From positions 1,044-65,043 of the forward strand of contig CBDATI010000063.1 of the NCBI GenBank assembly GCA_965199675.1: a stretch of 64,000 nucleotides of DNA, written 5' to 3'. Source of the DNA: Vicinamibacterales bacterium (GTDB lineage Bacteria; Acidobacteriota; Vicinamibacteria; Vicinamibacterales; UBA8438). The translations under genes were made by a program, and so were the position numbers. Positions 7,791 through 63,682 of the stretch are shown piece by piece (position 1 is the first letter of the stretch; every line of letters starts with the position of its first letter). Under the pieces are notes generated by a model. That model worked only from the letters and a program-made list of their open reading frames with translations, was not told the origin of the DNA and made no database searches.

Positions 7791-7845
7791 CGGCCGAATC
7801 GCGCCGGGCGCCGGCGGAGCCCGGTCCATCCAGGCAGGGACGACC

Positions 7846-16496: not shown

Positions 16497-16663
16497 CAAC
16501 GCGTGGAAGACGTCTGTTCGCTGAGCCGGCCTGTCCATGCGGGATGGCGACGAGCGATTGAGCCGATGGGAGCCGCCGGTGTCCCCTTCACCCCCGATGG
16601 TCGCACCTCGGCGATCGCGGCGGTGATGGTGGGGAAGTCCCGTCGATGCCCGGGCCGCGGTCT

Positions 16664-26645: not shown

Positions 26646-27011
26646 GGGAGGGTCACACAACCTCGCGGGCCGGCCTGCCGGTCTGCGAAGTTCGGCGCGT
26701 GGACACGCCGAAAGGAGGTTCCTGCCTGTCATGGCGCATCGCGCTGCTTGCGCGCCGCTCGTCACCCGGGTGACGTGTCGGCATGCCGCGAGCGGGTAAT
26801 CGGACATTTCCATCGATCGGCTTGGCGGCGTGCGTCGCACGGCCCCGCCCGCGCTTTCGCGTGCGCGGGCGTCCGCGCGGTTCGTACCAGCACCGCAATC
26901 AGAGGCGGCGGTGCGGCCGGCGCGGTGCACGTCCGGCGACGCTTCACATCATACGCGCACCGCCGGCAGCGCGCCGGGTCGAGGCGCGGAACGGCGGGGG
27001 AGACCATCGAC

Positions 27012-47279: not shown

Positions 47280-49442
47280 CTACAGTCTGGCCAGCTTCCA
47301 GTTCTTGATCGGCAGGTCCCGTACGCGAATGCCCGTGGCCGCGTAGATGGCGTTGGTCACCGCCGGGGCGACCGGGGGCACGCCCGGCTCGCCGAGGCCG
47401 CCGAGACGCGCGCCCGAGCGGATGAACGCCACCTGGACGTCGGGGGCATCGGCCATGCGAATCATCTGGTGGTCGTGGAAGTTGCTCTCCACGACGCGGC
47501 CCTCGGCGATGGTGATCTCGCCGACGAGGGCGGCCGAGAGCCCGAAGACCACGCCTCCTTCGATCTGGGCGGCGGCGCTGTCGGGCTCGACCACGTCGCC
47601 GCAGTCGACGGCGGCCCACACGTTGCGGACGCGGAGCCCGCCCTGCGGCGACACCGCGACGTGCGCGACCTGGGCGACGATCGTGCCGAAGCTCTCGGCG
47701 ATGGCGATGCCGCGGCCCTCGCCCTCGGGCAGGGGGGCGCCCCACCCGGCCATCTCCGCCGCGCGGTCGAGGACGGCCCGGAACCGGGGGTGCTCGTCCG
47801 TCAGGTTGCGCCGGTAGGCGTAGGGGTCCATGCCCGCGGCGTGGGCCATCTCGTCGATGAACGACTCCTTGAAGAAGCCGTGCTGCGAGTTCAGCACCGA
47901 CCGCCACGCGCCCTCGCGGACGTGGTGCGGCGCGCGCCGGCCGTCGAAACGCTTTTCGGGGATGGCGTACGGCATGAACAGCGACTCGCGGTCGCCGCCG
48001 CCCGCGTAGTGGGCCCCTACTGCGAGAGGGCGGCCGTCGGCGGCGAGGGCGCCGGCGTAGCGGCACATGGCGGCCGGCCGGTAGTAGCCGTGCTGGATGT
48101 CGTTCTCGCGGCTCCAGACGAGCTTGACGGGGGCGGGCGACATCGCCTTCGCGATGCGCGCGGCGAGATCGACGTAGTCGAAGCAGAACGGCAGGCGCCG
48201 GCCGTAGCCGCCGCCGAGCATCAGGTTGGTCAGGTGGACCCGGCTCGCATCGAGGCCCAGGGCCCTGGCGGCGGTCGAGCGGGCGTTCAGGGGGTCCTGG
48301 GTGCCCGCCCACACCTCGGCGCGGTCGCCCTCGACGCGGGCGGTGCACGCCATGGGCTCCATGGTGGCGTGGGCGAGGAACGGCACCCGGTAGTCGGCGG
48401 TGATGACCTGTGCGGCGTCCGCCGGCATCTCCGGGGCGTCGCCGAGGGCCGCGTCGAACGCCGCGAAGATGGTCTCGCTCGTGACGCCGCCGTGGCCGGC
48501 GTCGTCGTACTCGGGGCTCAGGGCCGCGAGGGCCTGGCGGGCGCGCCAGAAGCTGTCGGCGACCACCGCGACGGCGTTGTCCAGCTCCACCACCCCGGCC
48601 ACCCCGGGCATCGCCTTCGCGGGCGCGGGGTCGACCGACACCAGCCGACCGCCCTCGACCGGCGCGATGTCGACGGCCGCGCAGAGCATGCCGGGCACGC
48701 TGAAGTCGATGCCGTAGGTGGCGCTGCCGTCGACCTTCGGGGGAATGTCGAAGCGCGGTTTCGCGGTCCGCCGGATCGTGTAGGTGTCGGGGTCTTTGAG
48801 GGGCGGGTCCGCCGGCGCGGGCAACGCCGCCGCCGCCTTCGCGAGGTCGCCGAAGCTCGCGCTCTGGCGCGACCACGGGTGGATGACGCGCGACCGCTCG
48901 GCCCTGCACTCGTCGACGGGGACGCCGAAGCGTTCGGCCGCGGCCGTGAGCAGCATCTCGCGCGCCGCCGCGCCCGCCATCTGCATGCCGTAGCCGGTGC
49001 CGCGCACCGCCAGCGAGCCCCCTGTGGCCTGGGTGCCGAACCAGCGCGCGAGACGGTACGCGCCGTAGTCGACGGCGCGCCCGACCGGCGCGGGCATCGA
49101 GTCGCCGGTGAATGCGCGCAGCATGTAGGCGTTGGCGTAGGCGTCGAGGGCGGGCGCTTCGCGGATGCGCACCCGGTCCCAGTCGGCCTCCATCTCCTCG
49201 GCCGCCATCATCGCGAGCCCGGTCTGCGAGCCCTGTCCCATCTCGCAGTGGGGAATGAGGATGGTGACGAGGTCGTCGGGGGTGACGGTGATCCAGGTCG
49301 TCAGTTCACCCTTGTCGGCGGCGTCGGCCGAGACGATGCCGTGGCGGCCCGGCGCGATGACGACGCCCGCGATGCCGAGCACGAACCCGCCGCCGGCGAG
49401 GGTCCCGGTCCCGATGAAGGCGCGGCGCGTCCACTTACCCAT
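47280..49442 (-). CDS. Molybdopterin-binding large subunit of an IorB / aldehyde-oxidase-family oxidoreductase (TAT signal)
   Basis: 720-aa [22 protein letters not shown] twin-arginine leader. [30 protein letters not shown], and a C-terminal [18 protein letters not shown]. Confidence 0.9.
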
Positions 49443-50010
49443 GGCGCCCCTCCTTCCCGTTGCCGCCGACGACGTCGCGCCCGGGGACGCCGACTCCGTC
49501 GGCGAGAGAGGCGGTGGCCTCGCCGTTCGTGACCGTTTCGTGCCTGGCCGCGAGAGCGCCGCTCTTGGCGACGGCGTGAATCGCCCGGCGCACGCGGACG
49601 AACGTGCCGCAGCGGCAGATGTTGGTGACGGCGGCGTCGATGTGCGCGTCGCTCGGGTCGGGCCGCCGCGCGAGAAGCGCCGAGACGGCCATGATCATGC
49701 CCGACTGGCAGTACCCGCACTGCGGCACCTGGTGGTCTGCCCACGCCTGCTGCACGGGGTGCAGGCGGCCGTCGGCGGCGAGGCCCTCGATGGTCGTGAT
49801 GGGCATGCCCTCGACCGCCGAGACCGGCACGGTGCAGGTGCGGACGGCGCGGCCGTCCACATGCACGGTGCAGGCCCCGCAGGCGGCGATGCCGCAGCCG
49901 AACTTGGTGCCCGTCAGTCCGAGCGTGTCGCGCAGGACCCACAGCAGCGGCGTATCCGGCTCCACGTCCACTGTGCGGGTCTGACCGTTCACGTCAAGTG
50001 TGATCGCCAC
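49435..50010 (-). CDS. [2Fe-2S]-binding small subunit (IorA type)
   Basis: GTG 50010 lies 5 nt after [36 protein letters not shown]. Overlaps the large-subunit start by 8 nt. Confidence 0.85.
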
Positions 50011-50427
50011 CGCGGCCTCCCGTCGCGCAAGGATGTCTCTCCCGATAGTAGCGCATTCGGGCACGGCGGGCGGCGCGGTGGGCGTGGCGCCCGCCGGGCA
50101 CGGGCGCGCCGGTGCCAGTCTGCAGCCGTGGCGCCGCCAGACGGCCGAGGCGCCCGCCCGACGGGGCGCGACCAGCGAGAGTCGCTGGCGTGCGCCGTGC
50201 ACGACGCCGTCTCACAGCAGGTGCGCATCCCGCCCGGCAACTGTCGCTCCGCCGGTGGCAGTCGGAGGGGATGGACGCGACGACATCGGCTGACGGACGG
50301 GAACGAATGCGTTCGGCCCCTCGGGCGCTGCGCTGCGGGCCGTACGAACATCAGCGCGATTCGCTTCGTCTCCAGGTAGAGTGCGAAGGACTCGGTCGCC
50401 CGGGTTGCGTCGGTTCCGGCGTGTCTG

Positions 50428-52875
50428 ATGTCGAGACTGAACAGATTCCAGCGTTTCCTGGCCAGCGCCGGGTTGGTGTTCGCGGCGTCACTCGCGTCCG
50501 CGCAGTCGGTCACGAGGGTCAGCGGCGTGGTCATCGACGGTCTGACCGAGGCTCCAATCGGCGCGGCGCGGGTGATTGTCGGTGACCGCACGGTGACGAC
50601 CGAGCCCAACGGGCGGTTCGTGATCGCCGTCGACGGCGACGCGGCCCGTCTGCGCTTCCAGGCCGACGGCTACCTGGAGACGGTCGTGGAGTTCGAACTG
50701 TCCGCCGACGAACCGGCGGCCGTCGAGGTCCGCCTGTTCCCCGGCGCGTTCGCCGAGACCGTCGATGTCGTGACGGAAGCGGCGGTGGTGGAGCGGCCCT
50801 CCGCCACGCCCGTCACCCCCGACGCCGTCTTCCAGGCCCCGGGCAGCATCGACAACATCTTCCGTACCCTCGACACCCTGGCCGGCGTGGCGTCGACCGA
50901 CGACTTCGGCAGCCGGCTGGCCGTGCGCGGCGGCACCCCCGACCAGAATCTGACCATCATGGACGGCATGGAGGTGCACAACCCCTACCGGCTGTTCGGC
51001 ATCACCAGCGCGTTCAATCCCGAGACCGTCGAGAACTTCGAGCTCACCGCGGGCGGGTTCGGCGCGGCGTACGGCGACCGGCTGTCGTCGCTGCTGGTGG
51101 TCGACAACCGCGCCGGCCGATCCGGGTTCCACGGTTCGACCGCGGCCAGTGTGACCGACGCCAACCTGGTGCTGGAGGGGAGCACGCCGGTCGGGGCGGA
51201 CGGCACGTGGCTGTTGAGCGCCCGACGCACCTACTACGACCTGGTGGCGGGGCGCATTGCCGACCAGAACTTTCCGTCGTTCACAGACCTGCAGATGCAG
51301 GCGGGATGGGACGTGGGGTCGAGCCATCGGCTCACCCTGACCGGGCTTCGCAGCGTGGAGGATGCGAACCTCTCGTTCAGCGATGACGGCGAACGGGGGG
51401 CCCTGGGGTCGGACATTGCCAACGGGCTCGCGTCGGCCCGATTCGACGCCGTGCTGGGGCCCCGGGCGACGGCGACGACGACCGTGTCGTGGTACCGCAA
51501 CCGCGAGTCGCTGAACTTCGACGGGCTCATCCGGGCCGAGGCCACCCGATCCAATGCGGTCGATGACGACGTGGCGTTCGGGCTCACCACCATCGGCTTC
51601 GAGCGGGCCATCGTCGTGGCCGACCGTTCGCTGCGGCAGGATCTCAGCGTGCAGGCCTCGCCGCGGCACCTGCTGAACGTCGGGGTCGAGCTGCACCGCC
51701 TCGACACCCGTGTGAACTTCCTCAACCGCGGCGACCGGAACGATGACGAGCCCAACGGGTCGAGCGTGCGAGGGGGAGCGGGGCTCCCGGATGTCCTCGA
51801 CTCCGTCCTGCGCGGTACGCGCGGCGGCCTCTGGGTTCAGGACACCTACACGCCGTCAGACCGGTTCTCGTTCGAGCCGGGGTTGCGCCTGGACTGGAGC
51901 ACCGTCAACGGCGGCGCGACGGTCTCGCCCCGGCTGGCCGCGAGTGTCGCGCTCGCCCGCGGCATGCGCATCCGGGCTGCCGGCGGACTCTACACGCAGA
52001 GCCCGGGTTACGAGAAGCTGAGCCAGTCGGACTACTTCCTCGACCTGTCGGGGGCGCGCGAGCTGGGGCTGCGGCACGAGCGGGCGACGCACCTCGTGCT
52101 GGGGCTGGAACAGGATCTGGGCGGCGATCTGACCCTCCGCGTCGAGGGCTACCACAAGCGGTTTTCCGACCTGCTGGTCGGCCGTCTGGAGACGGAAGCG
52201 GAGCGGGGGGAGCGCATCGGGCGGTACGATTTTCCCGAAGCCCTGCGCGACAGCGTGCCCGTCGCGCCGATTATCCTCAGCGCTCCGACCAACGACGCCG
52301 GCGGCTACGCCTACGGCCTCGACGTCTTCCTGCGGCATGACGATCCGGCCGCCCGGCTGACGGGTTGGGCCTCTTATGCCTGGGGGCGGGCCGAGCGGGA
52401 GAGTTACGGCCGCCACTATGCCTTCGAGTACGATCGCCCGCACGCGTTCAACGCCGTCGGCCGCTATCGGCTCACGAGCCGCTGGGACATCGCCGCCACA
52501 TTGCGGCTGGCCAGCGGCTTCCCCTACACGCCGTCGCTGGGACTGCGGGTGGCCGCCGCCGAGAACGACGAGGGGCGGTTGGTTCCGGCTTTCGATGGGG
52601 GCGGCAACCCGAGGTACAGCGTCGACTACGGGGGGGTGGCGAACCTGAACGCCGGTCGCCTGCCGTACTACGCCCGCGCCGATGTGCGCGCCACCTACCG
52701 CCGTGGACGGTGGTCGTTCTACATCGAGGTCATCAACGCGCTCGGACGGGACAACGCCGTGGCCTTCGAGTCGGAACTGCGACACGACCCCGGCGCGGCC
52801 GTGCCGCGCATCATCGAGACCCCCAGCGAGGGATTCCCCCGCGTCCCGACCTTCGGCCTGCGCGTGCGGTTCTGA
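50428..52875 (+). CDS. TonB-dependent receptor with an N-terminal carboxypeptidase-regulatory-like domain
   Basis: 815-aa ORF with a signal peptide. VSGVVIDGLTEAPIGAARVIV..PNGRFVI, then a plug (IFRTLDTLAGV, RGGTPDQNLTIMDGMEVHNPYRLFG). The barrel ends in ..PTFGLRVRF. Confidence 0.9.
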   Translation: MSRLNRFQRFLASAGLVFAASLASAQSVTRVSGVVIDGLTEAPIGAARVIVGDRTVTTEPNGRFVIAVDGDAARLRFQADGYLETVVEFELSADEPAAVEVRLFPGAFAETVDVVTEAAVVERPSATPVTPDAVFQAPGSIDNIFRTLDTLAGVASTDDFGSRLAVRGGTPDQNLTIMDGMEVHNPYRLFGITSAFNPETVENFELTAGGFGAAYGDRLSSLLVVDNRAGRSGFHGSTAASVTDANLVLEGSTPVGADGTWLLSARRTYYDLVAGRIADQNFPSFTDLQMQAGWDVGSSHRLTLTGLRSVEDANLSFSDDGERGALGSDIANGLASARFDAVLGPRATATTTVSWYRNRESLNFDGLIRAEATRSNAVDDDVAFGLTTIGFERAIVVADRSLRQDLSVQASPRHLLNVGVELHRLDTRVNFLNRGDRNDDEPNGSSVRGGAGLPDVLDSVLRGTRGGLWVQDTYTPSDRFSFEPGLRLDWSTVNGGATVSPRLAASVALARGMRIRAAGGLYTQSPGYEKLSQSDYFLDLSGARELGLRHERATHLVLGLEQDLGGDLTLRVEGYHKRFSDLLVGRLETEAERGERIGRYDFPEALRDSVPVAPIILSAPTNDAGGYAYGLDVFLRHDDPAARLTGWASYAWGRAERESYGRHYAFEYDRPHAFNAVGRYRLTSRWDIAATLRLASGFPYTPSLGLRVAAAENDEGRLVPAFDGGGNPRYSVDYGGVANLNAGRLPYYARADVRATYRRGRWSFYIEVINALGRDNAVAFESELRHDPGAAVPRIIETPSEGFPRVPTFGLRVRF

Positions 52876-52913: not shown

Positions 52914-53144
52914 TCACCAGCGCTCGTCGCACCAGTCCGGGCCGGCGACACCCAGCTCGGCCGCCGTCTGGAGCAGATCCCGACGCACGTCGGGATCTGC
53001 GAACAGCGCGTTCACTTGTCGGGTGATGTCGACGGCCGGCGGCGGCGGTTCGCGGCGACCGCGGTCTGGAGGGGCGCCCATTTCGGCCCATCCTGTCGGC
53101 TTGGCCGTGAGGCTCCCGGCGGTCTCCCCCTCAAGCTCCCTCAA
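52914..53144 (-). CDS. Possible 76-codon ORF translationally coupled (TTGA) to the upstream FMN_bind gene
   Basis: The TTG start overlaps the stop of 53141-53683. No recognisable motifs. Retained only because of the 4-nt overlap. Confidence 0.2.
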   Translation of the reverse strand: MRELEGETAGSLTAKPTGWAEMGAPPDRGRREPPPPAVDITRQVNALFADPDVRRDLLQTAAELGVAGPDWCDERW

Positions 53145-53683
53145 CGCCCCCGGCGCTCGGTGAGGAACTCGCGGGCCATGCGGCGGGCGCTGTCGCGGAT
53201 GGAGCGCACCGCCGCGTTGTTGGTGATGGTGGCCCGCGACACCCCGTCGATGTCGTCACCGACGGTCATCGGGGCGAGCACGCTCTTGCCCCGGAACTGC
53301 TCGATGAACGCCGGCAGGTCGATGGAGAAGTAGCCGAACGGTTCGTCGTGGTACACCATGCTGACGTCGAGCAGCACGCCGGTCGGGGCCATGCCCACGA
53401 GCATCCAGATCTCGCCCTTGTAGCCGCGGACGTCCCGCGCGAAGTCGACGGTGAAGAACCCGAGGCCGACCAGGACCTCTTCGCCGTCCGGTCCCGTTCG
53501 GTAGCCGCGGTAGTGGGGCGTCCCGCGGTCGACGAAGCGGAAGGTCTCGGCCCCCGGCAGCGCCTCGCGCAGGTAGCGTTCGTAGCGCGGGACATCGTCG
53601 GTGGCCCGCCACCGCTGCGCCAGGGGCGTGGCGGGAAGGCTGGCGGTCACGAGCATCGCGGCCAGCCATGCCGCCGGTTTCAC
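53141..53683 (-). CDS. Periplasmic FMN_bind-domain protein (NosR/RnfG/NqrC-type flavin domain), copy 1
   Basis: GTG 53683 follows GAGGAGGAG. Signal-like VKPAAWLAAMLVTASLPATPLAQ. YKGEIWMLVGMAPTGVLLDVSMVYHDEPFGYFSIDLPAFIEQFRGKSVL..GDDIDGVSRATITNNA. Paralog of 57605-58222. Confidence 0.7.
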   Translation of the reverse strand: MKPAAWLAAMLVTASLPATPLAQRWRATDDVPRYERYLREALPGAETFRFVDRGTPHYRGYRTGPDGEEVLVGLGFFTVDFARDVRGYKGEIWMLVGMAPTGVLLDVSMVYHDEPFGYFSIDLPAFIEQFRGKSVLAPMTVGDDIDGVSRATITNNAAVRSIRDSARRMAREFLTERRGR

Positions 53684-53830
53684 GTCGTCTCCTCCTCGGG
53701 TTGGAACCCGTCGCCCCCGACCCGTCTCGGGTCTCGAGGCGTCGGATCGAGCCGAGAGCGCCGAGGACCGCCACCGCGCCGGCGTCACGACAGATCCGCC
53801 CATCGTCGCTGCGGTGCGGACTCCCGGCCG

Positions 53831-56023
53831 TCAGTCGGCCAGCGGGTGCGGTCGCAACTGGAAGTGAACCATCTTGCTCGGGGTGCCCTTGCCGCCCTCG
53901 ATGTGCCAGTTGAAGTTGCCGCCGTAGTTGGCCCAGAGGCCGCGCCCCTTCCAGCCCGCATCCGGGTCGTCGATGCGGCCGTCGAGGCCCCGCGAGAAGA
54001 AGCCCAGCGGGTAGGGGATGCGCAGCACCACCCACTCGCCGGTGTCGGGGTCGAGGGCGAGCAGCGAATCCGAGCCCGAGCCGTTCGCGATGGGGATGTT
54101 CTCGCCGAGCCCCAGCGTGTTGAACTGGTCCACCCAGTTGTAATAGTGGAAGTCGCCGCTCCCGGGGTCGGTGACTCCCTTCATCTGGGGGCCCGGGGTC
54201 GGGTAGAGGGTCCAGCCCTCCGGGCAGTGCTGGCCCGTCGCCTCGGGCCCGCTCAGCACGCGGCACTTGCGGCGGTCGAAGCTCGCCATGTGGCCGCTTC
54301 CCGACAGCGCCGTCCAGATGACGCCGTTGCGGTCGACGTCGATCCCGCGCGGCGCGTGTCCGGTCCTGGCCGGGTCCACGTCGGGATTCTCGATCGACGG
54401 CGGCTCGTAGACCTCGGCGATGCACGTCTCGGGCGGGCTGTCGCCGCGGTCGAGACGCACGATGCGGCCGGGGAACGGTCCCGTCTCGGCCCCCCACACG
54501 GTGTGGTCCACGGGGTTGGCGATGACGCCGTAGAAGCCGCCGCCGATGCGCGTGTCGCGGGTCGGGTCGATGTCGTCGCCGGGCTCGTTCCAGGGCCGCG
54601 TGATGCGTCCGTCGCCGTTGGTGTCGAGCACCTTGGGGCACCAGCCCTGGGCCGCCTTCTCGTCGCCGGTCTCGTCGTAGAGCCGCGTGTTGATCCAGGA
54701 CACGACGTTGCCGCTCCCGCTGAACCAGAGCGTGTCGTCGGGGTCCTCGCCGAACTGCAGGTGGTGGGTGCCGAAGCAGGTGTCGAGGAGCGCGAACTCG
54801 CCGGTGGCGGGGTCGTAGTACGACGCATGGCGTCGGCCGGTGCGCGAGAGCGGGAACCAGCGCGCCGACGGATGGTCCGATCCCTCGCCGCACCACGCCG
54901 GCGCCTGCGCGCCCCGCACCGTCGAGGTCATCCACACCCGTCCCTTGCCGTCCATCATGGGGTTGTGCGGGTCGGCGAGTTCGTCCGGGTCGTTGCCCCA
55001 CAGGATCTCGTCGCCGTAGTAATACGAGGGCTCGAGCTGGGTCTGAGGAAACCTGGACACGATGGTCTCGGGATCGTCGCGCACGGGAATGACGATCTCC
55101 GTCGACGTGTGGGCGTTCGGATCGGTGACGACGAGGGCGCCGTGCCCGGCGTCGACCGAGTAGACGGGACCGTTCGCGTTCACGCGCGGGTTCCGCTTGT
55201 CGGTCACGATCTCGTCGTGGATGTAGGCGGTCGGCCGCCCCCAGTCCCACATGGTCAGCACGAGGTTGCGCTCGACCCCCGCCGGCCGCGGGGGCGTCGG
55301 GGGCAGCTCGCCGTCCGCGATGCGCTCCGTCCAGTCGGCGTACATCTGCAGGCCGCGCTCGCGGCCGAAGCGGTTCATGCCGGCGTTCATCGAGGCGCCG
55401 CGCTGGCCCGTCCGGACCCGGTGGTCCCAGGCCGCGAGCGCGGAGTCGAAGTCGTCGAGCTGGTCGATCTCGCGGGTGATGCGGTTGCCGAGCTGGTGGC
55501 AGAGCTGGCACCCCTGCTTCATGCGGTCGACCCACCGCGCCTGGCTCGTCATCGCCGGCGAGATGCCGTTGCCGTTGGGGCCGGTGCCGGGGAACTCGCT
55601 CTCGTCCGGCACCTCGATCAGGGAGTACCAGTAGTTCGCGGGGTAGACCTGTGCGGCGTCGCGCGGCGTCGGGGCGACGACGGCGCGCAGGGCGACGTCG
55701 TCGCCGGGGCGCCCGGTGACCTTGTCGGAGTCCACGAGGCCGTAGCCGCGGACCCAGAGGTCGTAGGCAGCGTCGGGAAGCTGGGGCAGCAGAAAGCGCC
55801 CGTCGTCGCCGGTGACCACGATCTTGACGAACTTCGTCTGCAGATCGTCGGTCTCGGCGATCACCCACACGCCCGCCTCCGGACCGTCGTCGCTGCGGAC
55901 CACCCCGGTGATCACGCCGTCGTCCGCCAGTTGCCGGGCCCCCGCCCGCTCGGTCGTCCCGATCGCCAGGGCCGCCAGCGTGCAGGCCGCCGCCGCGGCG
56001 CCGAGCGCGTGTCGCATGCTCAT
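53831..56023 (-). CDS. Secreted 730-aa protein: CarboxypepD_reg-like domain + single CXXCH heme motif + large unassigned (probably beta-propeller) domain
   Basis: ATG 56023 (MSMRHALGAAAAACTLAALAIG) follows GGAAGGGGA. GVITGVVRSDDGPEAGVWVIAE..GDDGRFLLPQLP. Heme motif KQGCQLCHQLGN. About 500 further residues are rich in W/G/D repeats (GVIWTALSGSGHMASFD, GRGLWANYGGNFNWHIEGG). Confidence 0.8.
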   Translation of the reverse strand: MSMRHALGAAAAACTLAALAIGTTERAGARQLADDGVITGVVRSDDGPEAGVWVIAETDDLQTKFVKIVVTGDDGRFLLPQLPDAAYDLWVRGYGLVDSDKVTGRPGDDVALRAVVAPTPRDAAQVYPANYWYSLIEVPDESEFPGTGPNGNGISPAMTSQARWVDRMKQGCQLCHQLGNRITREIDQLDDFDSALAAWDHRVRTGQRGASMNAGMNRFGRERGLQMYADWTERIADGELPPTPPRPAGVERNLVLTMWDWGRPTAYIHDEIVTDKRNPRVNANGPVYSVDAGHGALVVTDPNAHTSTEIVIPVRDDPETIVSRFPQTQLEPSYYYGDEILWGNDPDELADPHNPMMDGKGRVWMTSTVRGAQAPAWCGEGSDHPSARWFPLSRTGRRHASYYDPATGEFALLDTCFGTHHLQFGEDPDDTLWFSGSGNVVSWINTRLYDETGDEKAAQGWCPKVLDTNGDGRITRPWNEPGDDIDPTRDTRIGGGFYGVIANPVDHTVWGAETGPFPGRIVRLDRGDSPPETCIAEVYEPPSIENPDVDPARTGHAPRGIDVDRNGVIWTALSGSGHMASFDRRKCRVLSGPEATGQHCPEGWTLYPTPGPQMKGVTDPGSGDFHYYNWVDQFNTLGLGENIPIANGSGSDSLLALDPDTGEWVVLRIPYPLGFFSRGLDGRIDDPDAGWKGRGLWANYGGNFNWHIEGGKGTPSKMVHFQLRPHPLAD

Positions 56024-56207
56024 GTTCGTCCCCTTCCGAGTTGGTCCACGGTCCAGGAGCCCGCGGCGAAGTCTCCGCTCGCGGTCGAGCGGCGGTGCAT
56101 CGCAGCCGAGCCCGGCGCATGCCCGCCTCACGCCGTGTCCGGCGGGCGCCCTCCGGCCCCTTCGTGCGTGGTGCGGCGTGGAGGTTCACCACGGGCGCCC
56201 AGTATCG

Positions 56208-56275
56208 ATAACGGTACGGGCATCATAACGGGTACCAGGACGACGGGGAAGCCGGCCGTCCCCGCCGGCTATAAT
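56208..56275 (+). promoter_or_regulatory. AT-richer island with a direct repeat ATAACGG(G)TAC x2 and a perfect TATAAT
   Basis: ATAACGGTAC at 56208-56217, ATAACGGGTAC at 56225-56235, TATAAT at 56270-56275. Located in the 395-bp divergent intergenic region, 144 nt upstream of ATG 56419. Pattern only. Confidence 0.3.
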
Positions 56276-56418
56276 CGCGAGTGTCGAGAGCCCGTGGTGC
56301 GCCGGCGCCGCACCGGGGGCGGCCGGGACGTCCGTCCGCCGGGCGTCCTGCTGCGCCCCCGGCCCCAGGCGCGGGGCGTCCTGCCACGGGTTCCGGGACG
56401 CGACTCTCGGGAGGTGCC

Positions 56419-57600
56419 ATGTCCATTCGCTCTGCCGCTCTTGCCCTGATCGCCGCCATCGCCGCTCCCGCCTTGCTGCCGGCCCCGGCCGACGCGGAGG
56501 AGCGCCTGGTGACCGTCGAGCGCTTCGTCCCCCACACGTCGACGGTGCCCGCCAACGAGGGCCGGCGGGTCGGTCTCTACCTGCGCGAGAAGGCTTCGGC
56601 CGAGGCGATGGCCCGGTTCGAGGCCGGCGCGGCGCCAGAGGGCCGCGTGGTGCTGTTCGTGCACGGGGGCTCCGTGCCGTCGGTGCCCGACTACGACCTC
56701 GACTACAAGGACTACAGTTGGATGGGCTTCCTGGCCGAGGCGGGGTTCGACACTTTCGCGATGGACCACACCGGCTACGGCCGGTCGCCGCGCCCGAAGA
56801 TGGACGACGCCTGCAACATGAGCGAATCGGACCAGGCGATCGTCACGCCGCATCCGCTGTCGGCGCCGTGCGAGCCGAGCTACCCGTTCGGATCGACCAC
56901 GGTGCAGTCCGACTGGGACGAGATCGACACCGTCGTCGACTACATCCGTGCCCTGCGGGGGGTCGAGCGGGTGAGCCTCGTGGGGTGGTCGGCCGGCGGC
57001 CGCCGCACCGGCGGCTACGCGGCGCGGCGCCCCGAGAAGGTGGACAAGCTCTTCCTGTTCGCGCCGGGCTACAGCCCCGAGGGGCCTTCGGATGCGCCGG
57101 GCGGGCTGCCCGCCGCGGGCGTGCCGATGCGGCTGCAGACGCGCGACACCCTCATGCACGGCCGATGGGAGGACAACGTCGCCTGCGAGAACCAGGTCGA
57201 CCCCGGTATTCGCGCGGCCATCTGGCGCACCATCCTGGCGTTCGACCCGCTGGGGTCGGTCTGGGGACCGCCCGAGGGGGTCATGCGGGTTCGGGCCGGC
57301 AACCCGTCGTGGGGCTGGAACCGGGAGTACGCCGCGAAGGTCACCGCGCCCACGATGATCGTGGTCGGCGAGCAGGACAACCCGACCGCCCGCGGCGTGC
57401 TCCACGCGGACCTGACCGGGACCGACTCGCGGGTTCTCGTGACCATGGCATGCGCCACCCACTTCGCGAACTGGGAGCGCGCGCAGTACAGGTTCATGCA
57501 CCGGGCGTCGCTCGAGTGGCTGGCCGAGGGCGCCTTCCGTGGACACCGCAACGGCGTGTACCGGGTGGGCGTCGACGGAGCGGAGCCGACGGGCGAGTGA
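56419..57600 (+). CDS. Secreted alpha/beta-fold hydrolase
   Basis: ATG 56419 follows GGGAGGTG. Signal peptide MSIRSAALALIAAIAAPALLPAPADA. VLFVHGG and the nucleophile elbow LVGWSAGG. Confidence 0.8.
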   Translation: MSIRSAALALIAAIAAPALLPAPADAEERLVTVERFVPHTSTVPANEGRRVGLYLREKASAEAMARFEAGAAPEGRVVLFVHGGSVPSVPDYDLDYKDYSWMGFLAEAGFDTFAMDHTGYGRSPRPKMDDACNMSESDQAIVTPHPLSAPCEPSYPFGSTTVQSDWDEIDTVVDYIRALRGVERVSLVGWSAGGRRTGGYAARRPEKVDKLFLFAPGYSPEGPSDAPGGLPAAGVPMRLQTRDTLMHGRWEDNVACENQVDPGIRAAIWRTILAFDPLGSVWGPPEGVMRVRAGNPSWGWNREYAAKVTAPTMIVVGEQDNPTARGVLHADLTGTDSRVLVTMACATHFANWERAQYRFMHRASLEWLAEGAFRGHRNGVYRVGVDGAEPTGE

Positions 57601-57604
57601 CGGC

Positions 57605-58222
57605 GTGACGACGCGAACGCGTTCAGGGGGCGTGTCGGCGGGGCCGACCCGCGGGTCGGGCGACCGCCGGCCGCCGGGGTGCGGCGGGGCCTTTCGTCAG
57701 AGGCTCCTGGCCGTGGCGCTGGTCGTGACGGCCGCCGCGGCGGCCGCCGCGCAGGGGTTCGTTTCACCCGCCGACGAGGCCGCCTTGCGCCGGCTCGTGC
57801 CCGACGCCGACCGCTTCGAGCTGCACGACGGGGGCGCGCGGCACTTCCGCGCTTTCGCGGCGCCCGCGGCCGGCGGCGTCCCGCGGCTGATCGCGCTCGC
57901 CTTCTTCACCACCGACCTCGCCCCGCGCATCTACGCCTACAAGGGGCGCATCGAGAGTCTGGTGGCGATGGACCCCGGCGGTCGACTCATCGGCGTGGAG
58001 GTGGTGCACCACTACGAGCCGTTCGGCTACTTCTCCATCGACCTGCCGGGGTTCACCCCCCAGTTTGCGGGCAAGAGCATCCTCGACCCCCTGGAGGTCG
58101 GCGGGGACATCGACGCCGTGTCCCGCGCCACCATCACCATGGAGGCGGCGACGCGCGCGATCCGGCAGGGCGCGAGACGGCTCGCCCGCGACTTCATCGC
58201 CGAGCAGAGCGCCGACCGCTGA
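57605..58222 (+). CDS. Periplasmic FMN_bind-domain protein, copy 2 (start uncertain)
   Basis: YKGRIESLVAMDPGGRLIGVEVVHHYEPFGYFSIDLPGFTPQFAGKSIL..GGDIDAVSRATITMEA, preceded by the hydrophobic LLAVALVVTAAAAAAAQG. GTG 57605 or GTG 57632 are possible starts. Confidence 0.65.
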   Translation: MTTRTRSGGVSAGPTRGSGDRRPPGCGGAFRQRLLAVALVVTAAAAAAAQGFVSPADEAALRRLVPDADRFELHDGGARHFRAFAAPAAGGVPRLIALAFFTTDLAPRIYAYKGRIESLVAMDPGGRLIGVEVVHHYEPFGYFSIDLPGFTPQFAGKSILDPLEVGGDIDAVSRATITMEAATRAIRQGARRLARDFIAEQSADR

Positions 58223-58238
58223 CCGGTCGTTCGAATCC

Positions 58239-59219
58239 ATGTCCGGCTTCTTCCGGCGCGCCGTCGTTCTCCTCGTGCTGCTGCTCTCGCCGGCGGCCAT
58301 TCCCGTCGCCGTCGCGCAACCGGACGAGGCCGCGCCGCCGCCGCTGTCGCTTGACGATCTGGCGGCCCTCGACGCGCTGCTCGAGGAGGACGAGGCGGAG
58401 TCCGCCGCCCTGCTCGATTCGGGCGCCGTCGTCGACGTCGCGGCGCTGGCGATCTTCTTCGCGTTCGCGGTGTTCAGCTTCGTGCGGAAGGACGACCGCC
58501 TGAAGGTCGTCAGTCTCGTGCTCGCCGTCGCGTACCTGGGTTTCTACAAGGCGAGCCTGGTGTCGGTCGTCGACATCTTCGGGGCGATGCGGGGGACGCT
58601 GCCCGCGTGGACGGACGGGCAGGCCTACTATCTGCTCATGGCGTTCACGCTGGCGTCGACGGTGCTGTGGGGGCGGCTGTACTGCGGGCGCATCTGCGCG
58701 TTCGGAGCGCTCACCCAGCTCATGGACCGGGTGGTGCCGGCGCGTCTCCGCGTCGAGCCGCCGGCGTGGCTCGATCGGCGGCTCGTCCTTCTCAAGTACG
58801 GAGTCCTCGCGGCCGCCGTCCTGTACGTCCTCGGCGGCGGCGATACCCTCGTGTACCGTTACATCGAGCCGTTCTGGATGTTCACGTTGAGCGGCGACGC
58901 GGTGATGTGGACGCTGCTCGCGCTGCTGCTCCTGGCCACGGTGTTCGTGCGCAACCTCTACTGCCGCTACCTGTGCGCAGTGGGGGCCGGACTCGGGCTG
59001 CTGTCCAACCTCACCGTCTTCCGCATCAAGCGGTGGCGCGAGTGCGACACCTGCAAGCTCTGTGAGAAGACGTGCGAGTGGGGCGCCATCGACGGCCCGA
59101 AGATCCTCGTCAGCGAGTGCGTGCGGTGCGACGACTGCGAGCGGCTCTACGCCGACGAGGACCGCTGTCCCCACTGGTTGATTCAGAAACGCGCCGCCGC
59201 CCGTGCGGCCCGCGGGTGA
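58239..59219 (+). CDS. NapH/NosR-type integral-membrane polyferredoxin (2 x C-x3-C membrane motifs + 2 x [4Fe-4S] motifs)
   Basis: ATG 58239. Several transmembrane segments. LYCGRICAFG and LYCRYLCAVG. C-terminal CDTCKLCEKTCEWG and CVRCDDCERLYADEDRCP. Confidence 0.8.
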   Translation: MSGFFRRAVVLLVLLLSPAAIPVAVAQPDEAAPPPLSLDDLAALDALLEEDEAESAALLDSGAVVDVAALAIFFAFAVFSFVRKDDRLKVVSLVLAVAYLGFYKASLVSVVDIFGAMRGTLPAWTDGQAYYLLMAFTLASTVLWGRLYCGRICAFGALTQLMDRVVPARLRVEPPAWLDRRLVLLKYGVLAAAVLYVLGGGDTLVYRYIEPFWMFTLSGDAVMWTLLALLLLATVFVRNLYCRYLCAVGAGLGLLSNLTVFRIKRWRECDTCKLCEKTCEWGAIDGPKILVSECVRCDDCERLYADEDRCPHWLIQKRAAARAARG

Positions 59220-59239
59220 GCCGTGTTCAGGAGGACGCC

Positions 59240-59755
59240 GTGAAACCGAGCCGCCCCGCCGTCACGTTTCGCCGCCCCGGCGCCCTGCGCGCGTCGGCGT
59301 GCTCACCGACCGGGAGGCGACGCCGGCCCCTGCCCACTGCGGGGGGGCGCCTCGCCGCCGCCCTGCTGATGGCGGGGTCGGCGGCCGCGGCGGCGGCCGG
59401 GCAGGGGCGGACGGTCTGGGACGGCGTGTACACCGCCGAGCAGGCGCGGCGGGGCGCCGCCGCCTACGAGCAGGCGTGCGCCGAGTGCCACGGGGCCGAC
59501 CTCGGCGGTGGAGACATGGCGCCGGGTCTGGCCGGTGTGCAGTTCGTCTACAACTGGCACGGGTTCACGGCCCGCGACCTCTTCGAACGGCTGCGGGTGT
59601 CGATGCCCCCGGACCGGCCCAACCGCGTGAGCCGGCAGGACAAGGCCGACATCCTCGCGTTCATGCTCGAAGCGAACGGCATGCCCGCCGGCGACGCGGA
59701 GCTGGCCAGCCGGACCGGCCCCCTCGGCGCCATCCAGTTCCTCGCCGAACCGTAG
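59240..59755 (+). CDS. Mono-heme c-type cytochrome
   Basis: GTG 59240 follows CAGGAGGA. Hydrophobic leader ..LAAALLMAGSAAAAAAG. Heme motif ACAECHGADLGGG. Confidence 0.75.
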   Translation: MKPSRPAVTFRRPGALRASACSPTGRRRRPLPTAGGRLAAALLMAGSAAAAAAGQGRTVWDGVYTAEQARRGAAAYEQACAECHGADLGGGDMAPGLAGVQFVYNWHGFTARDLFERLRVSMPPDRPNRVSRQDKADILAFMLEANGMPAGDAELASRTGPLGAIQFLAEP

Positions 59756-59980: not shown

Positions 59981-61312
59981 TCAGTCGGCGGCCACCTCGC
60001 GGGGCGGGGGCGATTGAATCGCCTTGGCGGCGGCCCAGAGGGCGCCGATCATCAGCAGCAGGAGCACCATCCACCCCATCGCGCCGGTGAACATCGCCCG
60101 GCTGAACGCCGCCCAGGTGATCGGAAACTGCGTGAGCACCCCCCACCGGTCGGTCATCCAGTGCCAGCTCGTGTGCGCAACGAGCGTCGACAGCAGGATG
60201 GTGCCGACCTTCTCCGCCACCACGTGGCGGAAGAGCAAGTGGAGGGCCGGCACCAGCACCGCCAGGACGAGGAGCTGGCCGAGCTCGACCCCGATGTTGA
60301 ACGACAGCAGCGACGTCAGGAGGTGCGAGCCCGCGAACTGCAGGGTCTCGCGCAGGGCGAACGAGAAGCCGAACCCGTGCACCAGCCCGAAGAGGAACGT
60401 GATGGTCCACCGGCGTTGCACGTTGGCCCCGAGGATGTTCTCGATGGCCATGTACACGATGGACATCGCGATGAGGGTCTCGACCATCGGCGGGAACCAC
60501 AGCGCATCGGGCGCGAGGTCGTAGGCCGAGGCGATCAGGGTCACGGAGTGCGCGACGGTGAACGCGGTCACGATGATCGCCAGGGGCTTGAACTTGCGGA
60601 ACGGGATGACGAGGCAGGCCAGGAACAGCAGGTGGTCGGTGCCGCCGAGGATGTGCTCGAAACCCATCGCCACGAACCGGAACGCGGCCTGGTGCCAGCG
60701 CGGGTCGAGGCGGACGACGCCGGGGTCGCCGCGCAGCTCGAACACGCGCTCGGCCCCGCCGGGCGGCAGGAACCGCAGGACGGTGACGACCCGCAGGCCC
60801 ATCCGCTCGAAGCTCGGGCGGATCGAGAAGTCCGACCGGTCTGACTGGATCTCGAAGTCGAAGAGGACGTCGAGCATCGCCTGCTGCCAGACTATCTGGG
60901 TGTCGGCGGGCAGCAGCGGGCCTTGGACGTGGGCGAGCGCGGCCTCCCAGGTCTCGAACGAGCGGTTCGACGGCAGCGAGATCCTGATGGCGGCGATGGC
61001 TGGCTCGGGCAGGGGGGCGTCGTTCTCGAAGATGCGGACCTCCTGCCCCATCCACACCATCGCGGCGTCGGTGAACTCGTCGCGCTCGCGCGCCCGCTCG
61101 AAGTCGAGGTAGCCCGGCCCGTAGGTCGGGAACGCCATGTCCGACAGCGCTTCGAGGGGCACCCGCACGAGGAGGCGCAGCCGCTGCCCCTCGGGCTTGA
61201 CGAACGCCTGCACCGTCACGTCGCCGGGGATGTCGTGAGCCGACTGGGTGGCGGGCAGCGACAGGAGCAGACCGACGACGGCGAGGCCGCGGACGAGGAG
61301 CCCCCGAGGCAA
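59981..61312 (-). CDS. HupE/UreJ_2-type membrane protein with a large N-terminal periplasmic domain (start uncertain)
   Basis: Candidate TTG 61312 gives MPRGLLVRGLAVVGLLLSLPATQSA followed by HD. Core FEHILGGTDHLLFLACLVI, AFTVAHSVTL, FGLVHGFGFSFAL, FNIGVELGQ. Same architecture as 15510-16496. Confidence 0.75.
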   Translation of the reverse strand: MPRGLLVRGLAVVGLLLSLPATQSAHDIPGDVTVQAFVKPEGQRLRLLVRVPLEALSDMAFPTYGPGYLDFERARERDEFTDAAMVWMGQEVRIFENDAPLPEPAIAAIRISLPSNRSFETWEAALAHVQGPLLPADTQIVWQQAMLDVLFDFEIQSDRSDFSIRPSFERMGLRVVTVLRFLPPGGAERVFELRGDPGVVRLDPRWHQAAFRFVAMGFEHILGGTDHLLFLACLVIPFRKFKPLAIIVTAFTVAHSVTLIASAYDLAPDALWFPPMVETLIAMSIVYMAIENILGANVQRRWTITFLFGLVHGFGFSFALRETLQFAGSHLLTSLLSFNIGVELGQLLVLAVLVPALHLLFRHVVAEKVGTILLSTLVAHTSWHWMTDRWGVLTQFPITWAAFSRAMFTGAMGWMVLLLLMIGALWAAAKAIQSPPPREVAAD

Positions 61313-61661
61313 TCGCCGCGGCCGGCCGCCGGCGCCGGGGTCGCGGCCCGGCCGATGGCCTCCTCCGGAGGACTGGGGTGCGCGGGCGTTTCGGATGGAG
61401 TCGCCGGGCACGGGGCGTTCACGGGCTGGCACGGAAAAGGTGGCGCAATTCATGAGGTTTACAAGTATACTGGCGACCCCCGTCCGGCGGGCCATGGCGC
61501 CCCCGGTTCGTACGGGGCGGCCGGGGACTCGTTGGGAGCGGCCCGGTTGGAGTTGCGGTTCCGTCGTGCGCGTCGCGGGCCCGACGTGGCCCCGGTGGCA
61601 CGAAGGCAGGTGGTAGCCGGTGCGGGTCGGCGCAGAGCGCCGGGTTCAAGGAGGCATGTCG

Positions 61662-62939
61662 ATGAATCGGAAGCAGCATCTTCTTTTCGCGGGCGCCTTG
61701 GCGGCGGCAGCGCTGGTCGTGGTGGCCGCCACCGGCGCGCAGGAGCAGGGCGGCGGGAGCGCCGCGCTCTCGATGGACCCGAATGACGGCGTCCCGACGT
61801 TCGAGGTCGATCCGCTGTTTCCCAAGAACCTGCCGAACCACTGGCTGATGGGGCCGACCATCGGGGTCGACGTCGATGCGGACGACCACATCTGGATCGT
61901 GCATCGGAACACCCCCGATCAGTTCGTTCGCAACACCGAGATCGGCATGACCACCGACCCGCCGGTCGCCGAGTGCTGCCAGCCCGGTCCCCCCGTCCTC
62001 GAGTTCGACCAGGAGGGCAACCTCCTGCAGGCGTGGGGCGGCCCCGGCACCGAGACCGGTGACTACACGTGGCCGGTGTCGAACCACGGGATTGCCATCG
62101 ACGGCATGAACAACGTCTGGATCGGCGGCAACGGCGGCCCCGACTCGCACGTGGTGAAGTTCGACCACCAGGGCAACTTCCTGATGCAGGTCGGCGTTGC
62201 CGGCGCCCGCATGACTGGCCCCGTCAGCGAGCGCACGGGTCAGGCGACCCCGCAGCGCGACAGCCATTCCACCGACAGCTTCGGCCGGGTCGCCGAGATC
62301 GGGATCGACAACGAGGCCAACGAGGCGTACTTCGCCGACGGCTACTTCAACCGCCGGGTCGCGGTCGTCGACCAGGACACCGGCGAGGTCAAGCGTTTCT
62401 GGGGCGCCTATGGCAACGAGCCGGACGACAGCCTCGACATCGGCCGCTACGAGCCCGGCGGTGATCCCGCCTCGCAGTTCCGCGGTCCCGTGCACTGCGC
62501 GGTCATCTCCGACGACGGCCTCGTGTACGTCTGCGACCGGGCGGAAGACCGCATCCAGATCTTCCAGAAGGACGGGACGTTCGTGTCCGAGCACATCGTG
62601 GCCCCGCTGACCCGCTCGCAGGGTTCGACGTGGGACCTCGCCTTCTCGCACGATCCCGAGCAGCGCTGGATGTACCTGGCCGACGGCCAGAACATGAAGG
62701 TCTACATCATTCAGCGCGACACGATGGAAGTGCTCACCGCGTTCGGCGACGGCGGGCGTCAGCCGGGCATGTTCTTCGCGGTGCACAGCATCGCCACCGA
62801 CTCGGACGGCAACATCTACACCACCGAGACCTATGAGGGGTCGCGGCTGCAGAAGTTCGTCTTCAAGGGCTACGGCCCGGTGCCGGAAGGCGCGGAGGGC
62901 ATCAACAGCCAGGGCGTGCTCTGGCCGACCGGGAACTAG
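61662..62939 (+). CDS. Secreted NHL-repeat beta-propeller protein
   Basis: ATG 61662 lies 7 nt after AAGGAGG (the ATG at 61656 is too close). Signal peptide. Repeated blades (HGIAIDGMNNVWIG, VAEIGIDNEANEAYFADGYFNRRVAVVD, VHCAVISDDGLVYVCDRAEDRIQIF, VHSIATDSDGNIYTTE). Confidence 0.8.
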   Translation: MNRKQHLLFAGALAAAALVVVAATGAQEQGGGSAALSMDPNDGVPTFEVDPLFPKNLPNHWLMGPTIGVDVDADDHIWIVHRNTPDQFVRNTEIGMTTDPPVAECCQPGPPVLEFDQEGNLLQAWGGPGTETGDYTWPVSNHGIAIDGMNNVWIGGNGGPDSHVVKFDHQGNFLMQVGVAGARMTGPVSERTGQATPQRDSHSTDSFGRVAEIGIDNEANEAYFADGYFNRRVAVVDQDTGEVKRFWGAYGNEPDDSLDIGRYEPGGDPASQFRGPVHCAVISDDGLVYVCDRAEDRIQIFQKDGTFVSEHIVAPLTRSQGSTWDLAFSHDPEQRWMYLADGQNMKVYIIQRDTMEVLTAFGDGGRQPGMFFAVHSIATDSDGNIYTTETYEGSRLQKFVFKGYGPVPEGAEGINSQGVLWPTGN

Positions 62940-62950
62940 ACGCTTTGGGA

Positions 62951-62986
62951 CCGGGGTCTGCGCCGGCGAAGCGGCGCGGACCCCGG
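62951..62986 (+). terminator. Long GC hairpin 12 nt after the NHL gene stop
   Basis: CCGGGGTCTGCGCCG-GCGAAG-CGGCGCGGACCCCGG, a 15-bp stem with one G-U pair. No U-tract. Confidence 0.45.
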
Positions 62987-63238
62987 GACGCCGTTGGCGC
63001 CACACGGGGACGGCGATTGGCGGCCGGCGGCTGCGGGGGCGGAGTGGACCGACCGTCGGCCTTCGCGATCCGTGGTCAGGGTTGACGTTCCAGGGTGCGG
63101 GCCTTTGCGTTGGCGCCCCGGAGGCGTTCGGGCAGTCGAGATGGTGAGGCCGGTTACCGCAGGCACGCGGGGCCGGCCTTTCGTGTTGGAGCGGAGGCCG
63201 CGTTGGCAGGCTCGGCCCTTACCAGGGAGTGAAGGTCG

Positions 63239-63682
63239 ATGATTCGATGGTCGCGTGCTGAGGTTCTGATGTCGGGTGTGTTTGCGGCGCTGATCGCGGG
63301 CGCCGGCTCTGCAGCCGTGGCGCAGGAGGCGCTCACGACGGAGACGTACGGCCCGGCGATGAGTGAGATCCGACTCATCGTGGGCGACGCCGAGCTGCAC
63401 ACGGACGCGCGGTACTGGCCCGAACTGGGGGAGGACCTCGACAAGCTGTTTCCGATGTTCCGCCAGATCGAGGCGTTCTGGAGCGAGCGGGGCAACGACG
63501 ACGCGGTCGCCAAGACGCTGACGACCATCGAGGCGCTCAGGGAGATCGGCAACGCCGGCATCGCGATGGACCAGGGTGGCGCTCGGTCTGGCATCAGGGC
63601 CCTGCGCGCGACGTGCCAATCGTGCCACGACGCGCACCGCGAGGAGACCGCTGACGGCTACCGGATCAAGCCGGGATCGTAG
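63239..63682 (+). CDS. Class II (cytochrome c-prime / c556-like) four-helix-bundle cytochrome
   Basis: 147-aa ORF with a signal peptide (..FAALIAGAGSAAVAQE) and a single CXXCH close to the C-terminus (ATCQSCHDAHRE). This placement is the hallmark of class II cytochromes c. Confidence 0.65.
   Translation: MIRWSRAEVLMSGVFAALIAGAGSAAVAQEALTTETYGPAMSEIRLIVGDAELHTDARYWPELGEDLDKLFPMFRQIEAFWSERGNDDAVAKTLTTIEALREIGNAGIAMDQGGARSGIRALRATCQSCHDAHREETADGYRIKPGS

Follow-up and report, generated by a model that had tools for sequence, protein, structure and literature searches.

The 64-kb window analysed here, that is, the whole stretch of Vicinamibacterales DNA presented above, encodes near its end a secreted FMN_bind protein (FMNb2) and a NapH-like, NosR-type membrane polyferredoxin. 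These two genes, together referred to as the module, are regarded, with somewhat better than even confidence, as an orphan transmembrane conduit of flavin and iron-sulfur centres, which would exchange electrons with periplasmic c-type cytochromes and propeller proteins. A secreted heme/propeller protein of 730 amino acids (aa) encoded close by, here called big730, is considered separable from it. The initial annotation had reported its finding at 53141-59755. The genes that it named are all present at the places given, and profile hidden Markov models support their assignments, although three open reading frame (ORF) starts had been read too long and the resulting overlaps are not real. The closest relative of the window, which has a G+C content of about 72%, is the metagenome-assembled genome OZ242323.1 of the Vicinamibacterales (Acidobacteriota), where big730 is 95% identical.

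The module is recognized by the NosR model of NCBIfam (NF046105), which has 680 positions. The polyferredoxin matches its positions 417-679 with 118 bits, and FMNb2 matches positions 13-160, i.e., the N-terminal domain of NosR. Thus, the proposal that the two proteins correspond to a NosR-type protein split over two genes holds good. A full-length NosR is not present, as the two genes reach 118 and 34 bits against a cut-off of 1000 and the model positions of about 160-417 are absent. The polyferredoxin is also matched by Fer4_5 (41.7 bits; cut-off 22), and its homologs carry PF12801 and PF27538, the latter named 'NosR'. Through the alignment of 25 polyferredoxin homologs, it was observed that CGRIC, CRYLC, C-x2-C-x2-C-x3-C and C-x2-C-x2-C-x9-C-P are invariant. 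Two clusters of the form C-x2-C-x2-C-x3-C had been described earlier; the first of them stands, whereas the second is read from the alignment as C-x2-C-x2-C-x9-C-P.

A hydropathy scan and the alignment predict a signal peptide, an acidic periplasmic segment and five transmembrane helices in the polyferredoxin, and both CX3C motifs and both 4Fe-4S motifs would lie on the cytoplasmic side. This topology fits the transmembrane electron conduit suggested earlier, with no known terminal enzyme nearby. A search of the Protein Data Bank (PDB) with the polyferredoxin gave no match. The acidic segment, LSLDDLxxLDALLEEDE, occupies residues of about 35-55 after the signal peptide and is kept in all of the 25 homologs that were aligned. 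A role in docking or in metal binding is possible, and nothing comparable was found in the descriptions of NosR or NapH that were examined.

For the comparison of gene neighbourhoods, 83 module loci were collected, of which 80 came from a metagenome scan (alignment of polyferredoxin homologs) and three from contig look-ups; 55 of them were informative, i.e., had upstream sequence long enough to judge the presence of FMN_bind. In the window, the FMN_bind gene ends 16 nt upstream of the polyferredoxin. By ORF clustering, 46 of the 55 informative loci have an FMN_bind gene immediately upstream and in the same orientation, and three more found by tblastn bring this to 49 of 55. The stop and start codons of the two genes overlap in most of the homologous loci. 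FMN_bind and the NapH-like polyferredoxin are, therefore, a conserved two-gene unit.

FMNb2 has a signal peptide, and its S-R-A-T keeps the acceptor Thr, with Arg in place of the Gly of the [S/T]-G-A-[S/T] motif. The initial annotation had noticed D-x-V-S-R-A-T-I-T in both FMN_bind proteins of the region and had taken it for an anomaly. The motif is indeed read in both copies, but it is no anomaly, since the R form is the commonest in the subfamily and also occurs beside the flavin transferase ApbE. In a census of 66 FMN_bind ORFs, SRAT was found in 27, SRAS in seven and TRAT in three (R forms 37/66) versus SGAT in 14. ApbE (PF02424, 281 bits) directly adjoins the FMN_bind/NapH-like pair in 24 of the 83 loci; at ApbE-linked loci, 12 of 17 FMN_bind ORFs have the R form and none of the 17 has SGAT. 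Further, the Thr of the FMNb2 SRAT aligns on the flavinylated Thr of RnfG in the solved Rnf complex. The flavin of the module would most likely be attached by an ApbE from another part of the genome. If confirmed, the S-R-A-T variant beside ApbE would widen the accepted flavinylation motif.

In the proposed mechanism, electrons would enter the module from quinol or from a cytoplasmic donor and cross the membrane to an FMN, bound covalently by ApbE at the conserved Thr of D-x-V-S-R-A-T. From there, they would leave via c-type cytochromes to periplasmic acceptors. The cytochrome c encoded downstream is probably a part of the module. An outward (reductive) flow would agree with the low potentials that such flavin and iron-sulfur centres (FMN, 4Fe-4S) usually have, as well as with the role proposed for NosR, and the quinol-to-periplasm direction is plausible.

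The genes and other features of the region are as follows:

52914-53144, minus strand: 76-codon ORF, probably not a gene
53141-53683, minus strand: FMNb1, secreted FMN_bind protein of 180 aa, GTG start at 53683, motif DGVSRATIT (the ORF reaches 53803)
53831-56023, minus strand: big730, secreted protein of 730 aa with a signal peptide, CarboxypepD_reg, a predicted heme c domain and a beta-propeller
56024-56418: divergent intergenic region between big730 and the plus-strand operon
56419-57600, plus strand: secreted alpha/beta hydrolase, 393 aa, GWSAG
57630-58222, plus strand: FMNb2, secreted FMN_bind protein, start near 57630 (ORF from 57539), motif DAVSRATIT
58239-59219, plus strand: NapH-like/NosR-type polyferredoxin, 326 aa, ATG at 58239, Fer4_5
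About 59300-59755, plus strand: secreted mono-heme class I cytochrome c, CAECH, start uncertain (ORF begins at 59072)
59981-61495, minus strand: HupE_UreJ_2 membrane protein (144 bits) with a large periplasmic N-terminal domain, beyond the coordinates first reported
61620-62939, plus strand: secreted NHL-repeat beta-propeller protein
63239-63682, plus strand: secreted cytochrome c'-like protein, 147 aa, C-terminal CQSCH

The FMN_bind profile scores 31 bits with the ORF 53141-53803 and 35 bits with the ORF 57539-58222, the cut-off being 22, and FMNb1 and FMNb2 are paralogs of about 50% identity. FMNb1 is preceded by a GGAGGAG Shine-Dalgarno site, and its ortholog in L171 has 181 aa (L-numbers denote homologous loci compared with the window). 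As its start lies at GTG 53683, the gap to the big730 gene is about 147 bp and not 27 bp. Similarly, the homologs of the polyferredoxin are mostly of 315-346 aa; its start is, therefore, placed at ATG 58239, and it does not overlap FMNb2. The cytochrome c is matched by Cytochrome_CBB3 with 38.9 bits and contains CAECH.

As the initial annotation had noted, no NosZ, nitrite reductase, Nap or Mau gene was found in the window by Pfam scans of about 45 gene products. Likewise, nosZ and nirS are not among the named recurrent neighbour families of the 83 module loci, which have the following neighbours:

ApbE: 24/83 loci
HupE-like protein: 15/83 loci, the most conserved neighbour after ApbE
SNF transporter: 12/83 loci
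PQQ (pyrroloquinoline quinone) dehydrogenase: 12/83 loci
NHL propeller: 11/83 loci
Cytochrome c, downstream: 8/83 loci
Cytochrome c'-like protein: 7/83 loci
Hydrolase: 3/83 loci
big730: 2/83 loci

Three contexts recur among these loci. Type A, found in the closest relatives, has the order [hydrolase], FMN_bind, NapH-like, cytochrome c, HupE_UreJ_2, NHL propeller and a protein of 147 aa carrying CxxCH in its C-terminal part. In type B (about 60% identity), FMN_bind and NapH-like are followed by an SNF-family transporter and a convergent PQQ dehydrogenase, and type C (53-62% identity to the window protein) consists of FMN_bind, NapH-like and ApbE. The type A block lies in the window at 59981-63682, just past the coordinates of the initial report, and it recurs in L088 and L171. 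Its 147-aa protein weakly resembles the class II cytochromes c (cytochrome c') with an E value of 0.15, and C126, C129 and H130 are invariant in it. Judged by synteny, the best supported set of partners for the module in this lineage would be the adjacent cytochrome c together with the HupE/UreJ-like, NHL propeller and cytochrome c'-like proteins. No description of the type A gene set, or of big730, was found in the literature that was searched.

It is conceivable, if unlikely, that the same set of proteins serves in metal handling. By analogy with what is thought of NosR and NosZ, the module and its cytochrome c, together with the HupE/UreJ-like, NHL and cytochrome c'-like proteins, might reduce a metal ion for transport or insertion, or might keep a periplasmic propeller metalloenzyme reduced. 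HupE_UreJ_2 is found near the module in 15 of the 83 loci and, in L173, is co-directional with it and immediately downstream. Across the type A loci, NHL and then the cytochrome c'-like gene come in the same order, and the NHL family has conserved His, Tyr and Asp residues. Other classes of flavinylated systems have also been linked to iron transporters (Meheust et al. 2021, eLife, PMC8238504). However, the family PF13795 is without an assigned function and any metal site is putative, the HupE-like, NHL and cytochrome c'-like genes are also found together at L005, where the module is missing, and the synteny is confined to one sub-lineage.

In the HupE-like protein at 59981-61495, a predicted signal peptide is followed by ...SA-HDIPGD, and the same residues are present in the L093 homolog, the one examined. 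Cleavage after SA could give an N-terminal histidine, a possible metal-binding site. A search of the PDB with this protein gave no match. A second HupE_UreJ_2 paralog (153 bits) lies at 15510-16889 on the minus strand, adjoining a PPIC-type rotamase and a DUF3604 protein.

The initial annotation had proposed that the module is a dedicated quinol-to-periplasm supply for big730, with FMNb1 as its private adaptor, or else for the hydrolase. Such a role now appears improbable. For this comparison, 87 loci encoding homologs of big730 were taken with a flank of 10 kb where the contig allowed. The module was found within 10 kb in two of them, L008 (of the window's lineage) and L053 (Gemmatimonadota), leaving 85 of the 87 without it; conversely, big730 occurs in two of the 83 module loci, L091 (of the window's lineage) and L115 (marine), while 81 are without it. 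The conservation of this neighbourhood, which the annotation had itself put forward as decisive, is thus not borne out. The hydrolase fares no better, being no redox enzyme and lying upstream of the module in close relatives only (its cluster in 3/83 loci, and also L008 and L171), a handful of loci in all. What speaks for a dedicated supply is that the divergent arrangement with FMNb1 downstream of the big730 gene is kept in the window, L008 and L171, and that L091 keeps the divergent part, its contig ending before any FMNb1 position. These syntenic relatives are, however, close ones, the 730-aa protein being 82-95% identical where measured (L008 and L091). The co-location in L053 and L115 is independent of this lineage. 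The order in L053 is FMN_bind, NapH-like and ApbE, then a big730 homolog and an NHL gene, and in L115 it is FMN_bind, NapH-like, ApbE, a big730 homolog and a PQQ dehydrogenase. As these two arrangements are independent, an occasional functional link between big730 and the module is possible.

Thus, big730 is not the obligate partner of the module; the two are separable neighbours in this Vicinamibacterales lineage, where big730 with FMNb1 looks like a lineage-specific addition. In L088, a 23-residue C-terminal remnant of the 730-aa protein (7696-7764, minus strand; 74% identical) was observed just upstream of a NapH-like gene, beside which FMN_bind and the hydrolase have been lost. The remnant points to an earlier deletion or rearrangement in which this divergent layout was broken up.

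Several points weigh against the reading of the module as an orphan conduit with a separable big730. big730 lies within 3 kb of the module and its ApbE in two unrelated loci, L053 and L115, a co-location that by a rough estimate exceeds chance. The synteny with HupE and NHL is limited to the closer relatives (type A, about 15-19 loci). With 24 ApbE queries, tblastn found no ApbE in the window. Moreover, S-R-A-T is a putative flavinylation site, and the donor, the acceptor and the direction in which the electrons move are likewise proposed.

The 730-aa protein belongs to a large family. A word-indexed search gave more than 8000 matches, and an exhaustive search gave 5667 clusters at 50% identity (E<=0.001), 1044 of which have E<=1e-30. 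The members come from the Vicinamibacterales, other Acidobacteriota, Gemmatimonadota, Gammaproteobacteria and Phycisphaerae, a single genome often encoding several of them, and the identity between Acidobacteriota and Gammaproteobacteria reaches about 60%. The protein consists of a CarboxypepD_reg beta-sandwich (residues of about 35-115), a helical domain containing CQLCH, the putative mono-heme cytochrome c domain, and some 490 aa of beta-propeller. The CarboxypepD_reg match (E 8e-5) falls below the Pfam cut-off, yet 46 of 46 homologs match; Pfam has a model for this N-terminal domain alone, and none covers the propeller. The AlphaFold2 model likewise has a beta-sandwich, a helical domain and a beta-propeller, with a mean predicted local distance difference test (pLDDT) of 76 and a predicted TM-score (pTM) of 0.79. 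Against the PDB, Foldseek found generic six-bladed propellers only, with query-relative TM-scores of 0.2-0.3, including designed Pizza proteins, virginiamycin B lyase and lactonases. A PDB search with the sequence and with a profile gave nothing meaningful.

In the helical domain, all of 46 homologs share C172, C175, H176 and M212, and in a set of 77 divergent homologs the conservation of these residues is 92-96%. The CxxCH together with a distal Met is that of a class I cytochrome c, and Cytochrome_CBB3 matches weakly in 11 of the 46. The same 77 divergent homologs keep three cysteine pairs, and five histidines of the propeller (H269, H353, H420, H421 and H707) are 84-96% conserved among them. 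A histidine in each of several blades would have the look of a central metal or cofactor site. big730 is probably a cytochrome-linked oxidoreductase in its own right. Tentatively, it may further represent a new class of periplasmic oxidoreductase, in which a cytochrome c domain is coupled to a propeller of six blades, each of which would contribute about one of the conserved histidines that hold a metal or an organic cofactor. Such an enzyme would work with anchor-less PQQ dehydrogenases and, in some lineages, be fed or maintained by FMN_bind/NapH-like modules. If this is true, big730 would be among the largest uncharacterised redox-enzyme families of soil and marine bacteria. New periplasmic redox chemistry of these abundant but poorly cultured soil and ocean bacteria might well be sought in this family.

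A NosZ-like identity of big730, including the lactonase-type clade III, was considered because of the conserved histidines and the NosR-like neighbour. It was rejected, as no cupredoxin or NosZ profile matches and Foldseek places NosZ no higher than designed propellers; no architecture like that of big730 is described in the papers on clade III NosZ. A remote homology of the propeller to GSDH (the soluble PQQ glucose dehydrogenase, PQQ-sGDH), NHL or PQQ dehydrogenase was also rejected, the hhalign probability against the window proteins being below 3%. Further, the profiles Cytochrom_D1, PQQ and nos_propeller gave no Pfam or NCBIfam match at E<=1 in 46 big730 members.

The neighbours of big730 within 10 kb were counted in 84 loci:

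PQQ dehydrogenase, often directly adjacent: 27/84 loci
DUF1552: 21/84 loci
Unannotated family of about 330 aa: 20/84 loci
DUF1592: 20/84 loci
NHL propeller: 14/84 loci
Cyclase-like protein: 13/84 loci
PQQ_2 propeller: 12/84 loci

In the set of 87 loci, too, the NHL propeller was counted in 14. The family of about 330 aa is secreted and has four paralogs in the window, at 3547-4839 (plus), 31443-32498 (minus), 32561-33562 (minus) and 34022-35020 (plus). In other genomes, it is often found directly downstream of big730 homologs, and it has no match in Pfam, NCBIfam or the PDB.

The PQQ dehydrogenases beside big730 and beside the module match the catalytic part only (about 150-783) of the membrane-bound glucose/quinate/shikimate model. 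A signal peptide replaces the quinone-binding anchor in them and, therefore, their electrons must pass to another carrier, which could hypothetically be the cytochrome domain of big730. The window itself encodes an anchor-less dehydrogenase of the glucose/quinate/shikimate type with a signal peptide (11062-12969, plus) and a GSDH-type soluble PQQ sugar dehydrogenase (6182-8065, minus). Periplasmic quinoproteins that depend on an external electron acceptor seem to be numerous in the genome. At 40-1787 (plus), there is a further PQQ dehydrogenase, the Pfam match of which is split over two frames by a frameshift or a sequencing error; it is followed by an in-frame Cupredoxin_1 domain, and a propeller with a cupredoxin tail is an unusual combination.

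These dehydrogenases raise the idea that electrons flow inward, the module and the big730 cytochrome c domain collecting them from periplasmic dehydrogenases, above all anchor-less PQQ ones, and delivering them to the membrane pool. Such a transfer would be unfavourable, since the potential of FMN and 4Fe-4S centres is usually lower than that of PQQ. The idea draws on the frequency of PQQ dehydrogenases near big730 (27/84 loci) and the module (12/83), on their lack of an anchor in both groups and on the inward role, with electrons from the PQQ dehydrogenase, proposed for ExaA-associated NapH-like clusters (PMC8238504); nevertheless, it is very unlikely, as the nearest PQQ dehydrogenase of the window is 41 kb from the finding and, with multi-copy families of dehydrogenases and big730 in these genomes, some adjacency is expected by chance.

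Apart from the proteins, the initial annotation had described a TTGA-coupled 76-codon ORF at the end of the minus-strand unit. Its G+C content at third codon positions (GC3) is 0.79, compared with 0.93-0.97 in the neighbouring genes, and its identity to L008, the closest genome, is 52%, as against 91-95% for the genes on either side. It has no family match and is not annotated as a gene in the syntenic contig L171. Owing to the low GC3 and the poor conservation, it was rejected as a coupled small gene and is probably non-coding.

In the divergent intergenic region, GGCTATAAT (56267-56275) resembles a -10 box for the plus-strand operon and is kept in the window, L008 and L091, while TAACGGTACGGGCATCATA at 56209-56227 is kept in the window and L008. 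The former may act in a promoter and the latter may likewise be functional. A GGGAGG Shine-Dalgarno site is located upstream of the hydrolase ATG at 56419. No consensus sigma-70 promoter or terminator in this region rose above the shuffled background, and a riboswitch or other RNA element in 56024-56418 was rejected, as no Rfam match was obtained at E<=1.

On the other side of the finding, a TonB-dependent receptor with a CarboxypepD_reg N-terminal domain (50428-52875, plus), the large and [2Fe-2S] subunits of a molybdenum hydroxylase (47280-50202, minus) and a KatG-type catalase-peroxidase (43208-45433, minus) are encoded. The molybdenum hydroxylase adjoins in L088 and L172 too; the catalase-peroxidase and the receptor do not recur with the module. 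A DUF5916 protein of about 750-1000 aa, absent from the window, stands beside the NapH-like gene or big730 homologs in L095, L098, L103, L104, L005, L088 and L172. Elsewhere in the window, a cobalamin riboswitch (RF00174, 34.1 bits, above the gathering score) is present at 26349-26659 (plus) inside a cobalamin gene cluster. It lies just upstream of an adenosyltransferase domain (ORF 26382-27587), a periplasmic binding protein (27592-28587) and an FecCD permease, with CbiZ and CobD on the opposite strand. The segment 22271-23470 is of lower G+C (0.53-0.75 by codon position) with no clear coding-frame signal, and its ORF has no Pfam match.

Among the known systems, big730 can be compared with cd1 nitrite reductase, the quinohemoprotein dehydrogenases, NosZ and thiocyanate dehydrogenase, with which it shares a c-type heme domain and a propeller with conserved histidines. 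Unlike a member of these groups, it has no sequence or profile similarity to them, and in the Foldseek ranking NosZ and thiocyanate dehydrogenase do not stand above designed or generic six-bladed propellers. No characterised ortholog was found in the literature.

The FMN_bind proteins differ from RnfG and NqrC, as the matches are weak, domain-level ones of 26-31 bits against cut-offs of 102-205, and no other Rnf or Nqr subunits are encoded in the window. With NapH (TIGR02163), the polyferredoxin shares a membrane protein with CX3C motifs and two 4Fe-4S motifs. It scores, however, 48.5 versus 213 bits with TIGR02163 and 39 versus 234 bits with PRK09477; NapG, NapA and NapB are lacking, and NapH is without the FMN_bind partner that the window polyferredoxin has. 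The likeness to NosR/NirI extends to a periplasmic FMN_bind domain, to the pair of CX3C motifs in the transmembrane helices and to the two 4Fe-4S motifs of a C-terminal domain in the cytoplasm. In contrast to NosR/NirI, the module is made of two genes, lacks the model positions of about 160-417, reads CX3CA and not CX3CP, and has no nosZ or nirS nearby.

The closest counterpart is the class of NapH-like flavinylation clusters, defined as a multi-transmembrane Fe-S protein with PF12801 (or K19339) clustered with a gene for an FMN-binding domain or ApbE (PMC8238504). With its Fer4_5 protein and the FMN_bind gene 16 nt upstream of it, the module falls within this definition. Meheust et al. catalogued 2465 such clusters, and in 539 of these the FMN-binding domain has a gene of its own; the claim that an undescribed kind of system is present here is, therefore, not upheld, and the module is an orphan member of a described class. 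Beyond that study, no description of a split or orphan NosR was found in the literature. Like the split form, the module combines a PF12801 Fe-S membrane protein with a separate secreted FMN_bind protein, and ApbE is present in homologous loci. Unlike it, the window is without ApbE, and the module subfamily has S-R-A-T in place of S-G-A-T. The associations reported for the NapH-like clusters are with NosZ, PceA, NirS and ExaA, the reactions served by most of them being unknown (PMC8238504); the neighbours of the module, namely HupE_UreJ_2, NHL, the cytochrome c'-like protein and big730, are, as far as could be found, not among these. Flavinylated modules of the NapH-like/NosR type are widespread and mostly without a known job, and the three contexts described here give them concrete candidate partners.

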